A stretch of DNA of 64,000 nucleotides from Actinobacteria bacterium UBA2286 (GTDB taxonomy: Bacteria > Actinomycetota > Coriobacteriia > Anaerosomatales > Anaerosomataceae). Both the position numbers and the translations under genes were made by a program. Shown here in pieces: positions 19,017 through 22,530 of this stretch. The notes under the pieces were generated by a model. The model was not told the origin of the DNA. It searched no databases and worked only from the letters and a program-made list of their open reading frames with translations. Position 1 is the stretch's first letter. Each line of letters opens with the position of its first letter. The DNA lies in the NCBI GenBank assembly GCA_002345925.1, contig DDWM01000047.1:23061-87060 (forward strand), given 5' to 3'.

Positions 19017-19898
19017 TTACTCGTCCTCCCCCGGTGTGAGTGGCAGTGCCACTTCAAGCTCGCCGATGACTTCGGCGTCAAGGTGCGTCAGGTTCTCCTC
19101 GGCGGGAAATGCGCCCGAGCGGACCTCGGCAGTGTATGCGCCGATGGCCGAGCGGATCGCGTCACCAACGTCAGCGTAACGCTTCGCGTGCTTCGGCTTG
19201 AACGTTCCCAGGCCGAGTAGGTCGTGGAAGACCTGCACCTGGCCGTCGCAGCCGCCGCCGGCGCCGATGCCGATCGTCGGGATCGAGACTTCTTCAGAGA
19301 CGATGGCGGCAAGCTCTGCCGGCACAAGCTCCAGTACGATCGCGAACGCTCCAGCCGCCTCAAGCGCGAGCGCGTCTTGCACGAGCGCGATGGCCGAGTC
19401 GGTCTCGCGGCCCTGCACTTTGAAGCCGCCGAACACGTTCACCGACTGCGGCGTGAGGCCGATGTGGCCCATCACCGGGATGCCGGCTGCAACGATGCGC
19501 TCGACGGTGGGGGCGATGCTGATGCCGCCTTCGAGCTTGACGGCGGTGGCGCCTGCCTCGGCGAGGAAGCGCCCTGCGTTGCGGACGGCTTCTTCCGGCG
19601 AGATCTGGAAGCTCAGAAACGGCATATCGGCGACGATGAGTGCTCGCGACGTGCCGCGAACGACCGCAGCCGTGTGGCGCAGCATGTCGTCGAGCGTGAC
19701 CGGCAGCGTGCTATCGTGCCCGAGCACGACCATGCCGAGCGAATCGCCGACGAGGATCGAGTCCACGCCGGCCTCCTCGGCGAGTCGTGCCGAGGGTGCG
19801 TCGTACGCGGTGACCATCACGATGGGATTCCCTGCAGACTTCATCTCGCGCAGGGTTGCGGTGGTGACGCGCGCCTTGGTGCTGGTGGTGGCGCTCAT
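19017..19898 (-). CDS. panB: 3-methyl-2-oxobutanoate hydroxymethyltransferase
   Basis: The [30 protein letters not shown] motif is present. The start is at the ATG at 19898, preceded by GGAAGGAG. Confidence 0.9.
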
Positions 19899-19997
19899 CT
19901 GTAGCTCCTTCCCGGCAGTCCCGGCCCCGAACGCGGGGTCCAGGCAGCCCTTAACGGGTGGGGTTGGATTATAGCACCGAGGAAGGAGTGGGATGCG
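19868..19997. repeat. direct repeat copy 1 (130 bp): panB codons 1-10, panB leader and promoter
   Basis: It aligns over its full length with 22401-22530. I count 2 substitutions and 2 single-nt indels. Confidence 0.9.
19920..19976 (-). promoter_or_regulatory. panB promoter (-10 TGcTATAAT) and structured ~60-nt leader
   Basis: On the minus strand TGCTATAAT lies at 19976-19968. The leader contains a 10-bp GC-rich hairpin with a single bulged A and a CGUU loop (19920-19944), ending 22 nt before the ATG. Confidence 0.4.
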
Positions 19998-20057
19998 GCG
20001 CAATCCAGTCAGGGGGCGGCGTCTTTGTCCCGTTCTCCTGGCAAGGTGGATCCGAGC

Positions 20058-20122
20058 GATACTAAATCCGTGTTTGCATACTAAAGTTCCAGCGTTTAGT
20101 ATGCCAATATGGCTTTAGTATC
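20058..20122 (+). promoter_or_regulatory. nested inverted-repeat operator (four ATACTAAA boxes) upstream of the islet regulator gene
   Basis: The boxes are GATACTAAA (20058-66), GCATACTAAA (20076-85), TTTAGTATGC (20095-104) and TTTAGTATC (20114-22). This is an AT-rich patch in GC-rich DNA. It ends 2 nt before the AGGAGG SD of the ATG at 20138. Confidence 0.6.
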
Positions 20123-20137
20123 TCAGGAGGACCGGAC

Positions 20138-21118
20138 ATGCGGCACAAGGTCAAGAGCCTCGAAACGTACCTTCGCGAGACACTGCACACGCCGATCCGT
20201 CTGGAGCACTGGCCCGGGGCGACCACGCTGCCCGCCTACCTGACAGGGCAGTACGACTTCTTCGACGGCACGGTCGGCAGCGCCCACATCCTGTTCCTGA
20301 GAAGCGCAGAAGAACCCATGCCCAGCGCAGCGAAGAAACATGAGAGTGCTCTGCAGCAGAACTGGACCGGACCTGTGGCGTTCGTTTTCGAGCGCATCAC
20401 GCCGCGCACCCGCCAGCGAATGGTCAGCGAAGGGCTGTCTTTCGTGGTGCCCGGCAATCAGGTCTACCTCCCCGCCCTCGGCGTGAACCTTCGAGAGAGG
20501 TACCGGACCCGGGTGCAGACCACAGACCGGCTGCGACCCTCGGCGCAGGTGCTGTTCTTGCACGTGCTCGCAAACCGCTCCCCCGCCCCCGGCACTCCGA
20601 GTGGCCTGGCGAGGCGGCTGGGCTACACGGCGATGGCGATGGGGCAGGCTCTGAACCAACTTGAGGATGCGAAGCTGGTCACTGTGCACAAGGAGGGTCG
20701 CGAGCGCCTGTTCGAGCTAGCAGGTGAGCCTGCCGATTTGTGGCTGCAGGCCCAACCACTGCTCGCAAGCCCCATCAGGCGCAGGCGCTACCTAACTGGC
20801 GCTGCACCGTCGGGGCGCAAGGGACTGGCATCTGGCCTCAGTGCGCTGGCCACCTACTCCGCCTTAGCAGAACCGATCGTCCCTGTGGTGGCACTCGACA
20901 GAGTCAAGGCCAAGAGCCTGCTGGAGGTTCGCGGCGTCCAGGAACTGCCCACCGCCGATGAGGCCGAACTCGCGGTGGAGGTCTGGTCCTACGAGCCGGG
21001 CCTGCTCTCGGAAGGAGCCACTGTCGACCGGCTCTCGCTCTACCTCTCTCTTCGAGACGACACCGACGAGAGGGTCCAGTCCGCGCTCGATGAGATGATG
21101 CGAGGCGTCACGTGGTAA
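20138..21118 (+). CDS. wHTH (MarR/AbiEi-like) putative antitoxin/transcriptional regulator
   Basis: 326 aa with a central winged helix (LARRLGYTAMAMGQALNQLEDAKLVTVHKEGRERLFEL). It overlaps the downstream nucleotidyltransferase gene by 7 nt. Confidence 0.55.
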   Translation: MRHKVKSLETYLRETLHTPIRLEHWPGATTLPAYLTGQYDFFDGTVGSAHILFLRSAEEPMPSAAKKHESALQQNWTGPVAFVFERITPRTRQRMVSEGLSFVVPGNQVYLPALGVNLRERYRTRVQTTDRLRPSAQVLFLHVLANRSPAPGTPSGLARRLGYTAMAMGQALNQLEDAKLVTVHKEGRERLFELAGEPADLWLQAQPLLASPIRRRRYLTGAAPSGRKGLASGLSALATYSALAEPIVPVVALDRVKAKSLLEVRGVQELPTADEAELAVEVWSYEPGLLSEGATVDRLSLYLSLRDDTDERVQSALDEMMRGVTW

Positions 21119-21885
21119 GAGGTCTGAACGTCTTCCGCGGGCGCTTCGCCGGTTTCGAGGACCGCTACGTCCTCATTGGCGGAGCTGCCGTGGAAGTGGC
21201 GATGGACGCGGCGGGCTTGCAGTTTCGCGTGACCAAGGATCTCGACATCGTCTTGCATGTCGAGGCTCTCGATGCGCAGTTCGCGAAAGCTTTCTGGGCG
21301 TTTGTCGCCGACGGAGGCTACGAGTTCCAAGAGAAGAGCACGGGCAAGCCGACGCTCTACCGATTCAGCAAGCCGACGGACGAGAGCTTCCCCTACATGC
21401 TCGAGCTGTTTTCCCGCAGGCCCGAGCTGATCGAGCCATCAGCGGACTGTCATCTCACACCTCTGCCCGTCGCCGAGCAGGTCTCGAGCCTCTCGGCAAT
21501 CCTGCTCGATGACGACTACTACGACTTCGTCCAAGAGGGCACCCGAGCGGATGGCGGATTGTCGGTGCTCGCGCCGGAGTACATCGTGCCGCTCAAGGCG
21601 CGCGCGTGGATCGACCTGACCGACCGGCACGAGCGCGGAGACGACGTCTCCCGTGGCGACATCAAGAAGCACCGCAACGACATCATCCGCCTGAGCCAGC
21701 TCATATCGCCGGGAGCGCGGATCGCACTTCCAGATGCTATCGGCGGCGACTTGAAGGAATTCGTGGCGCGGGCGTTGCACGACGGTGCCGAGCCCAGGTC
21801 CTTCGGGGTCATCGGGATGACACTGGAAGACGTGCGCTCATTGCTCGGCGCCGTATACGACCTCCCCGGGAGGGCGCCCGAGTAG
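21112..21885 (+). CDS. Pol-beta-fold nucleotidyltransferase, AbiEii/DUF1814-like putative toxin
   Basis: 257 aa. VLIGGAAVEVAMDAAGLQFRVTKDLDIVL fits the GG...x(n)...DxD nucleotidyltransferase signature. The gene is coupled to the upstream wHTH gene. Confidence 0.6.
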   Translation: MVRGLNVFRGRFAGFEDRYVLIGGAAVEVAMDAAGLQFRVTKDLDIVLHVEALDAQFAKAFWAFVADGGYEFQEKSTGKPTLYRFSKPTDESFPYMLELFSRRPELIEPSADCHLTPLPVAEQVSSLSAILLDDDYYDFVQEGTRADGGLSVLAPEYIVPLKARAWIDLTDRHERGDDVSRGDIKKHRNDIIRLSQLISPGARIALPDAIGGDLKEFVARALHDGAEPRSFGVIGMTLEDVRSLLGAVYDLPGRAPE

Positions 21886-21940
21886 AAGGCGTTCAGCTCC
21901 ACGCTGCGTACGACGCTCGCGGGGCCAACGGTGCTCGCGC

Positions 21941-22393
21941 GTGACGGTGGGGCTGATGCTCCTAGACCCCTGGATCATCGATCTTGGTGAGATCACCGGT
22001 GGTCAGATGGGCTACGCGGTACGCGTTCCCAACCCCGGGGCCTTCATCTTCCATAAGTCCCTGGTGTTCATGAAACGCAGAGACCGCCTCAAGAAGGAGA
22101 AGGACCTCTACTACATCTTCTTCGTGCTTGATACATTCCCGAAGTGGCGGGAGCTGGTTGCCGCCGAGCTTGCCAGGTTCGCCACGCGGAAGCCCGCTTG
22201 GCTGAAGAAGTCCCGAAAGAACCTTGCCGCGATCTTCGACGGCGCGGACTCCACAGGCGTGGATGCGCTACTGAATCAGAAACCTCAGACGGCATACGCC
22301 GACATGAGCGATGATCAGTTCCGCCAGTACGCGTTCTCAGTGATGTCCGACCTGATCGAGATGATGGACTCGGGACTCGCGGCCAAGAGCTAG
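21941..22393 (+). CDS. C-terminal fragment-like nucleotidyltransferase-fold family protein (probably truncated)
   Basis: 150 aa with a GTG start. It contains only the helical C-terminal type of region (FIFHKSLVFMKRRDRLKKEKDLYYIFFVL) and has no catalytic GS/DxD part. It abuts the right-hand repeat. Confidence 0.4.
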   Translation: MTVGLMLLDPWIIDLGEITGGQMGYAVRVPNPGAFIFHKSLVFMKRRDRLKKEKDLYYIFFVLDTFPKWRELVAAELARFATRKPAWLKKSRKNLAAIFDGADSTGVDALLNQKPQTAYADMSDDQFRQYAFSVMSDLIEMMDSGLAAKS

Positions 22394-22431
22394 CGCCACG
22401 CGCGCGCCTTGGTGCTGGTGGTGGCGCTCAT
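22390..22431 (-). pseudogene. panB' 5' remnant (10 panB codons, then out-of-context sequence and a stop)
   Basis: The minus strand reads ATG AGC GCC ACC ACC AGC ACC AAG GCG CGC GCG TGG CGC TAG. The first 10 codons are identical to panB codons 1-10. Confidence 0.7.
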
Positions 22432-22530
22432 CTGTAGCTACTTCCCGGCAGTCCCGGCCCCGAACGCGGGGTCCAGGCAGCCCCTAACGGGTGGGTGTTG
22501 GATTATACACCGAGGAAGGAGTGGGATGCG
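22401..22530. repeat. direct repeat copy 2 (130 bp)
   Basis: See copy 1. It includes a second copy of the leader hairpin (22453-22477) and the TATAAT box. Confidence 0.9.

Follow-up and report, generated by a model that had tools for sequence, protein, structure and literature searches.

The stretch of DNA considered here, 64,000 nucleotides of contig DDWM01000047.1 from Actinobacteria bacterium UBA2286 and called the window in what follows, carries at the start of its pantothenate synthesis gene panB an islet of 2.4 kb which is bracketed by two direct repeats of 130 bp, each containing the promoter, the leader and the first codons of panB. This repeat-islet-repeat structure is real and was found in three independent metagenome samples. 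With a probability of about 50%, it would represent an old, apparently fixed insertion, accompanied by the in-situ duplication of 130 bp of the target and brought about by illegitimate or template-switch recombination. An earlier note, drawn from the sequence alone, had interpreted the repeats as an attL/attR-like footprint, i.e., as the attachment (att) sites of an insertion into the panB 5' region, and the two parts of that interpretation are separated below.

A repeat search of the window recovered 19868-19997 and 22401-22530 as a single two-copy family of direct repeats with a spacing of 2533, and the alignment by MAFFT shows that both copies agree at 126 of 130 positions, the remainder consisting of two substitutions and two single-base indels, with a sharp loss of identity at both ends of the repeat. 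The repeat includes blocks of perfect identity of 39 and 43 nt, and a 42-mer of the repeat occurs exactly twice in the window, compared to 0.00 times in 100 shuffles; no third copy was detected in the 64 kb by pattern search or with a covariance model of the leader. Each copy comprises a TATAAT box, a leader of ~62 nt, a Shine-Dalgarno (SD) sequence and panB codons 1-10 plus one nucleotide, and the repeat, which starts at about -36 and ends one base after codon 10, corresponds to one complete functional unit. In the left copy, the TATAAT box at 19968-19973 belongs to the extended -10 element TGCTATAAT, the SD reads GGAAGGAG, and translation continues into the full PanB of 293 amino acids; the right copy gives only a remnant of 13 codons. 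Coordinates, the number of differences, the content of the copies and the unequal fate of their reading frames are all as they had been described in the earlier note.

Since the data consist of metagenome assemblies, in which misjoins are frequent at repeats, a spurious duplication at a contig join deserves consideration. An exact-protein look-up of PanB located two further contigs, ENA ERZ27315058 (281 kb) and JGI 3300040971 (79 kb), which display the same gene order and both copies, well inside the contigs and with the same two substitutions and two indels between partners; compared to the window, these contigs show 3 base differences over 20,882 bp. In addition, a third sample (JGI 3300002702) supplied a contig of 1.6 kb which covers the right copy plus both its junctions and is 100% identical to positions 22177-23777 of the window. 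Given the four sites at which the copies differ and their recovery in three samples, an assembly artefact is practically out of the question, and the objection which the earlier note had itself raised falls away. The divergence between the copies (4/130, ~3%) largely exceeds that between the samples (3/20,882, 0.014%), which dates the insertion to a time long before the sampled population spread. All three samples holding this species show the occupied site.

Judged from its closest matches, the host is an uncultured Coriobacteriia-like actinobacterium close to the metagenome-assembled genome (MAG) HGW-Actinobacteria-6, the best match among species-representative genomes (PanB 99%, DNA ~88-91% identical). 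In this MAG, whose panB locus is designated L004 (related loci are cited by such L numbers), folK abuts a single leader followed by panB, and positions 26461 and 22534 of the window map to adjacent, slightly overlapping positions. The same gap contains homologues of two VapBC-like pairs, then one leader, in L005, one VapBC-like pair, then one leader, in L008, and two unrelated genes of 498 and 358 amino acids with a single leader in L007 (7333-9907). By eye and without a family search, the two L007 genes look like a membrane-bound O-acyltransferase and its partner, so that the cargo would not be confined to toxin-antitoxin genes. The differing content of the gap across relatives makes the folK-panB gap a variable hotspot and, on this comparison, all of the window between 19998 and 26460 (6.5 kb) is accessory DNA, the 2.4-kb islet being the panB-proximal part only, a point that goes beyond the earlier note. 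A second copy of their own panB 5' region was found in none of 80 related panB loci. The comparison of the panB upstream region among relatives, which had been suggested from the sequence, thus yields single leaders, empty or differently filled gaps, and no second duplication.

With respect to their sequence differences, the two copies are not equivalent. The left copy matches the states of the relatives at all four differing sites, and three states of the right copy are unseen in any relative: the loss of a C from TGCTATAAT (a 1-nt deletion), which shifts the TG of the extended -10, an A to G change in the leader, and the change of the SD from GGAG to GTAG, which also breaks a pair of helix 1 of the leader. 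At the fourth site, an A immediately behind the -10, the relatives vary among themselves. Both copies are identical in the 19 promoter-distal bases, at several of which L004 differs and to which the other relatives cannot be aligned, and codon 7 reads ACC in both copies vs ATC in L004; these shared lineage-specific bases suggest that both copies descend from this lineage's own sequence. On the promoter-distal side of the right copy, the homology with L004 runs on to 22534, and the terminator-like hairpin of a membrane-protein gene occurs just upstream; the ancestral context is therefore retained upstream by the right copy and downstream by the left one. Our conclusion from these differences is that the left copy is probably kept by selection, the right copy behaving as a decaying orphan.

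The islet itself does not look like a uniform piece of DNA. Its third gene corresponds to the C-terminal 145-150 amino acids (60%) of a nucleotidyltransferase of ~255 amino acids and matches positions 153-205 only of the 218 positions of the PF12281 profile; it is devoid of the catalytic N-terminal part, and the full-length homologues (248-263 amino acids) carry the motif GGW...TRDxDLAV in the part which is missing here. Its nucleotide homology to L098 begins at 21947. As a side observation, the homologue in L098, located behind an AbiEi_2 gene, seems to contain a frameshift near the corresponding point. For the spacers of 47 and 46 nt and the 26-nt tail of the islet, neither the fetched loci nor the window yielded a significant match. 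The spacers and the truncated gene 3 indicate a mosaic islet, broken internally at two points at least, a pattern to be expected where a hotspot has undergone repeated rearrangement. The three plus-strand open reading frames of the islet have a host-like G+C content at third codon positions. At the right junction (J2), an AC(GC)n run common to panB (..TGACGCGCGCC) and to the islet end (..CCACGCGCGCGCC) represents a possible microhomology. As had been noticed from the letters alone, integrase, transposase and tRNA are missing: no integrase or transposase domain occurs among the window genes scanned or provided with precomputed Pfam matches, and no tRNA in the 64-kb window. Moreover, no terminal inverted repeats were found at 19998 or 22400, and no plasmid, replication or transfer genes in the islet. 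An insertion sequence or transposon was rejected because a transposase and terminal inverted repeats are lacking and because the duplication measures 130 bp instead of being short.

The facts to be explained comprise two novel junctions located 130 bp apart in target coordinates, the local origin of both copies, the lack of a recombinase, of terminal inverted repeats and of att arms, the non-recurrence of the site, the mosaic make-up of the insert and the position of J2 in the AC(GC)n run. In the reading we prefer, a single illegitimate event would insert foreign DNA at codon 10/11 and re-copy the 130 bp upstream of that point, either through a microhomology-mediated template switch to a foreign template and back to a position 130 bp behind the point of departure, or through a homology-anchored illegitimate join during the uptake of DNA from a relative. 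Only those products which keep an intact promoter, leader and 5' coding sequence beside panB would still make pantothenate, and selection for a working panB would therefore explain why the surviving product duplicates exactly the unit running from the promoter to the insertion point. From then on, the left copy would be under selection and drive panB, and the right copy, an orphan, would decay. The repeats could let RecA-mediated homologous recombination delete the islet, a loss which addiction to the toxin-antitoxin pair would oppose; the persistence of the islet in three samples could equally be due to drift.

Such an event shares with illegitimate or template-switch insertions, i.e., with homology-facilitated illegitimate recombination and with the microhomology-mediated break-induced replication/fork stalling and template switching (MMBIR/FoSTeS) model (PMC2621351), its non-recurrent junctions, a possible microhomology at one of them, the flanking target duplication, the lack of a recombinase and the mosaic insert. 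It differs in its setting, models of this kind being documented mainly in transformation experiments and human copy-number variants. To our knowledge, no bacterial case of a 130-bp duplication preserving a promoter-leader-start unit has been described. The folK-panB gap also resembles the hotspots of defence and toxin-antitoxin genes, with different cargo in each relative (VapBC, AAA_14/DUF4143 ATPase, acyltransferase genes). The usual explanation of cargo exchange in hotspots, homologous recombination between the core genes on either side, leaves no duplication behind, whereas in the present case the insertion would have cut into the 5' end of a core gene, to be rescued by the duplication.

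The first two genes of the islet form an operon which is known from other places, and these bear on its origin. Region 20045-21900 recurs at 87-92% identity in related MAGs (L084-L097, L104-L106), with blastn end points at 20045/20046 (20094 in L087) and 21866/21900. Most of the copies share a common context, consisting of a copy of the tRNA-Glu 3' end and GGGCACCAAATC arm motifs on both sides. They belong to tandem units of 2.3-3.5 kb, most with one toxin-antitoxin-like pair, which are split by att-like repeats of 150-350 bp holding the tRNA-Glu 3' end and the GGGCACCAAATC arm motifs. The array in L088 abuts a real tRNA-Glu gene, as does one unit in L087, and no integrase occurs in the stretches seen of L087, L088, L093 and L104/L105. 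Such arrays look like accreted, integrase-less mini-islands and resemble the accretion of cis-mobilizable elements (PMC5704250). The operon also occurs in toxin-antitoxin and defence clusters beside bona fide AbiE pairs; no direct repeats surround it at the non-tRNA sites L084, L091 and L098, and a single distant match, of 43% identity, was obtained on viral contigs. The arm repeat of the tRNA-Glu units is absent anywhere in the window. A discrete mobile cassette with fixed ends at 20045 and 21900 was considered and rejected, since these ends are the points where the tRNA-Glu att context common to nearly all other copies stops matching the flanks of the window. In L084, 21 nt from the 3' end of gene 2 (CCTGAAGAAATTCGTGGCGCG, 8639-8659) recur 153 nt downstream, just past the gene (8792-8812); the gene-2 protein encoded there is shorter (253 amino acids), and the repeat may be what is left of an older, partly replaced copy.

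Several observations weigh against the preferred reading. The mechanism is deduced from the end product only, no step being directly observed, and no empty-site allele of this species, intermediate or second example was found, an exact-sequence look-up of an unoccupied allele through the neighbouring membrane protein having returned occupied sites only. At J2, the microhomology is a short one within a GC run of low complexity, and there is none at J1. At the A indel following the -10, the right copy shows the state of L005-L007 and the left copy that of L004, and given this state, the right copy could derive from another lineage. Finally, in L088 the same operon is located between direct repeats with no integrase between them, which makes a trans-mobilised islet a live alternative. 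The last two points lead to the cis-mobilizable elements (CIMEs) which, together with the tandem accretion of integrative elements, have been described previously (PMC5704250). The islet resembles a CIME in being a small gene-carrying segment, enclosed by direct repeats whose sequence overlaps a host gene end, without integration or transfer genes of its own. If the copies were the attL and attR of such a decayed or satellite element, which would target the panB 5' region, carry a replacement promoter and 5' end, and have lost its integrase or use one acting in trans from elsewhere in the genome, the direct repeat overlapping and restoring a gene end would be the classic footprint of an integrative element, the long hairpin of the leader would provide the dyad symmetry often used by tyrosine recombinases, and the A indel could mark the foreign copy; in addition, the operon in integrase-less units arrayed between att-type repeats at tRNA-Glu (L088, L093, L104/L105) suggests that trans-mobilised mini-islets exist in this clade. 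We nevertheless regard this explanation as unlikely. No recombinase was found among the examined genes of the window and no cognate integrase nearby, and the repeat, at the 5' end of a gene, is chromosomal along its whole 130 bp, both copies being identical even in the 19 lineage-specific bases, so that an element-borne copy would need to come from this very lineage. Besides, none of the 80 relatives has the repeat or another occupant at the panB site, an exact-pattern scan for the leader gave 0 matches in the viral contig collection, the islet has none of the arm-type repeats of the tRNA-Glu islets, and it is internally a mosaic. The attL/attR-like part of the earlier interpretation thus finds no support, the footprint of an insertion into the panB 5' region being upheld by the single leaders of the relatives and by the empty site of L004. 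We conclude from the comparison that the repeat probably arose in situ from the target and was not brought in as an att site. A bolder variant, suggested by analogy with the tRNA-Glu arrays, in which the 130-bp unit would be a true att site and tiny, integrase-less toxin-antitoxin cassettes of this clade would be moved in trans by a recombinase encoded elsewhere, is improbable; if true, panB would be a second site of the cassette system, with the dyad-symmetric hairpin of its structured leader, possibly a riboswitch, at the centre, and the cassette would supply a spare promoter-leader-start through which the essential gene survives.

A circle bearing the islet and one 130-bp panB start could also have integrated by RecA-dependent homologous recombination, in a Campbell-type single crossover, which gives exactly a repeat-islet-repeat arrangement and for which the 39- and 43-nt blocks of perfect identity would be enough; copies of the same lineage are expected if the circle arose within the species. 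This is rather unlikely, because the circle must first have captured a panB segment of exactly 130 bp, connected to the islet at either end, a step that itself requires earlier illegitimate events or a prior repeat-islet-repeat, and because the islet is devoid of any plasmid, replication or transfer gene. No extrachromosomal copy was encountered in the exact-pattern scans of viral and metagenome contigs (0 matches in the latter, a collection evidently without this clade and thus uninformative). In a two-step scenario, either a tandem duplication of 130 bp came first or the islet disrupted panB at codon 10, and a second event inserted the islet or restored panB. Microhomology-mediated tandem duplications are common, a loss of panB would be tolerable in a community that supplies pantothenate, and the islet bears traces of repeated rearrangement; this scenario remains improbable, since it needs more events than a single step, the later one having to strike precisely the junction of the duplication or to consist in another illegitimate join, and no intermediate was seen in the 80 relatives.

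The leader that was duplicated together with the promoter is a structured RNA conserved among relatives, which had escaped the earlier note. When both copies and the relatives are aligned, an extended -10 (TGnTATAAT/TATACT), the ~62-nt leader, the SD GGGAAGGAG and the start codon are conserved, and no conservation among relatives is left upstream of position -17. The structure of the leader covaries across 21 loci from Coriobacteriia-like MAGs: helix 2 consists of 12 pairs, 5 of which show changes on both sides, and in helix 1 CCCAYCC pairs with GGGAAGG, part of the ribosome-binding site. Over these loci, 95.5% of the cells are paired, compared to at most 61% when the partners are slid, and the covariation score amounts to 0.32 vs 0.226 in shuffles, 0 of 500 shuffles reaching 0.32. 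The covariance model attributes 85.0 bits to the left copy and 80.4 bits to the right copy with its broken helix-1 pair. No match to Rfam 15, including the pan motif, was obtained at E <= 1 in 19000-23500, and the leader is not present in the inspected panB loci of Chloroflexota (L030, L032-L036, L038, L039). The panB leader is a candidate for a new regulator, riboswitch-like in kind, by which Coriobacteriia-like bacteria would control pantothenate synthesis. As to the promoter of the orphan right copy, the TATAAT remains intact, the proper TG spacing is lost and the SD is weakened; a simple promoter scan flags neither copy because there is no good -35 in either, and a weak terminator-like site occurs at 22226-22243 on the minus strand. 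Antisense transcription from the orphan promoter into gene 3, which the earlier note had taken as taking place, is possible, its target being in any case the dead remnant of a second, presumed nucleotidyltransferase toxin gene.

Table 1. Positions of the features discussed, given for the window unless a locus is named
Feature	Position	Strand	Remarks
panB, 293 aa	19017-19898	minus	Pfam Pantoate_transf, E 2.6e-116; leads the panB-panC-nadA-nadB-nadC run
Left (working) copy of the 130-bp unit	19868-19997	minus	repeat search, MAFFT alignment
Right (orphan) copy of the 130-bp unit	22401-22530	minus	repeat search, MAFFT alignment
panB leader RNA	19899-19973; second copy 22432-22507	minus	also just upstream of panB in L004-L029, L031, L037
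13-codon remnant open reading frame	22390-22431	minus	panB codons 1-10 fused to the islet end
Junction J1	19997/19998
Junction J2	22400/22401		inside the AC(GC)n run
Left flank of the islet, 47 nt	19998-20044		no similarity in fetched loci or window
Two-gene operon with its own regulatory region, 1.86 kb	20045-21900	plus	related MAGs carry it at other loci, with 87-92% identity
Operator-like inverted repeat	20058-20122		plus strand; 28-nt arms (86% complementary) around a 9-nt spacer; directly precedes gene 1
Gene 1, 326 aa	20138-21118	plus	central winged helix-turn-helix (residues ~135-196), MarR/ArsR-like
Gene 2, 257 aa	21112-21885	plus	pol-beta-type nucleotidyltransferase, distantly AbiEii/DUF1814-like
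Spacer between operon and gene 3, 46 nt	21901-21946		internal breakpoint
Gene 3, open reading frame of 150 aa	21941-22393	plus	5'-truncated NTP_transf_8 (PF12281) remnant
Rest of the folK-panB hotspot	22531-26460		absent from L004, partly present in L005 and L008
Membrane protein, 210 aa	22639-23271	minus	terminator-like hairpin 22592-22607
AAA_14/DUF4143 ATPase	23676-24992	plus	PADLOC candidate PDC-S01, E 1.2e-98
Two VapBC-like pairs	25006-25699, 25755-26388	minus
folK	starts at ~26468
Att-like repeats in L088	6738-6894, 8865-9213, 11386-11656
Att-like repeats in L093	3630-3847, 7091-7308, 9614-9831
Att-like repeats in L105	9800-9910, 11770-12172

The genes of the islet operon overlap by 7 nt (21112-21118) and are preceded by an operator-like inverted repeat made of four ACTAAA/TTTAGT half-sites, which overlaps promoter-like hexamers and is kept in all copies of the operon; from this layout, the operon would be autoregulated through the predicted operator. 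Gene 1 matches Pfam MarR_2 with an E value of 2.2e-5, below cut-off, and its winged helix-turn-helix (wHTH) part only resembles ZitR/AdcR in the profile search of the PDB and SmtB/MepR according to Foldseek, the flanking domains finding no structural match; it is presumed to act as repressor and antitoxin. Gene 2, the presumed toxin, has at least 6,931 homologues, among which 2 of the 120 listed carry a precomputed PF08843 match; one homologue with PF08843 (P0114), 51% identical, is named AbiEii/AbiGii toxin by NCBI. The structure model of gene 2 (pLDDT 82) retrieves with Foldseek, at TM-scores of only 0.3-0.48, Helicobacter pylori JHP933 (E 1e-5), which we take to be a DUF1814 protein, and Cid1 as top matches, M. 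tuberculosis MenT1 appearing at rank 19 (E 0.0099). Its residues I22-G23-G24, R39, D43 and D45 are invariant in 24 homologues, L44 being nearly so, and they fit motifs I (hG[GS]) and II (R...DhD) as defined for AbiEii (PMC3985639), with a spacer of 18 residues between the motifs vs 15 in AbiEii.

In this respect, genes 1 and 2 most likely form a distant AbiE/MenAT-like pair, acting in toxin-antitoxin or abortive infection, although we do not assign them to the family. With the AbiE (AbiEi/AbiEii) and MenAT type IV toxin-antitoxin or abortive-infection systems (PMC3985639, PMC7450476, PMC7319586), they have in common the bicistronic, overlapping genes, the upstream wHTH protein, the downstream nucleotidyltransferase, of a predicted pol-beta fold, with its hGG...R...DhD signature, and the inverted-repeat operator over the promoter. 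A number of results speak against such an assignment. The match of gene 2 to PF08843 remains below the cut-off (E 0.0089, 16.4 bits vs 22.5). In the same protein, K162-A-R-A-W166 fits the first half only of motif III (KLxAaxxR), with a displaced Arg (R172), and K186-H-R-N-D190 holds an invariant Asp without conforming to the +DxxD of motif IV. Gene 1, a 326-aa partner with a central wHTH, differs from AbiEi, which consists of an N-terminal wHTH and a C-terminal antitoxin domain, and it matched no AbiEi family of Pfam. PADLOC and NCBIfam gave no match for the operon proteins, and the sequence-profile search of the PDB found only the generic wHTH of gene 1 and nothing for gene 2.

The three differences that distinguish the window from the two other assemblies over 20,882 bp (20254, 20473 and 21690) all fall inside the operon, which would occur by chance with a probability of ~0.0007. 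As further observations, all three affect the third base of a codon, every one of them is found within one of the three longest stretches that the window shares identically with a 91.8%-identical paralogous operon from the same samples (L104-L106), and at all three the window carries the base of the paralogue. Either short-patch gene conversion or assembly cross-talk between the paralogues may account for them.

Around the islet, the local gene order runs leftwards on the minus strand through panB-panC-nadA-nadB-nadC, with folE-folP-folBK to the right. The AAA_14/DUF4143 ATPase and the two VapBC-like pairs make the folK-panB gap a small island of defence and toxin-antitoxin genes.

The structure described here is another instance of known processes, namely the accretion of toxin-antitoxin cargo in a hotspot and an insertion with target duplication; its appearance is that of an old scar, left by a single insertion in a variable hotspot, rather than that of a new kind of mobile element. 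It illustrates in a clean, well-controlled way how a biosynthetic gene that is cut near its start can survive through the duplication of promoter, leader and first codons, one copy going on working and the other decaying; the case may serve for teaching and for the dating of similar insertions, without being surprising. Two by-products of the comparison may matter more than the islet: the panB leader RNA, which pairs with the ribosome-binding site, and the att-flanked units at tRNA-Glu, which hint at a cassette-like trading of toxin-antitoxin-like modules among these bacteria.

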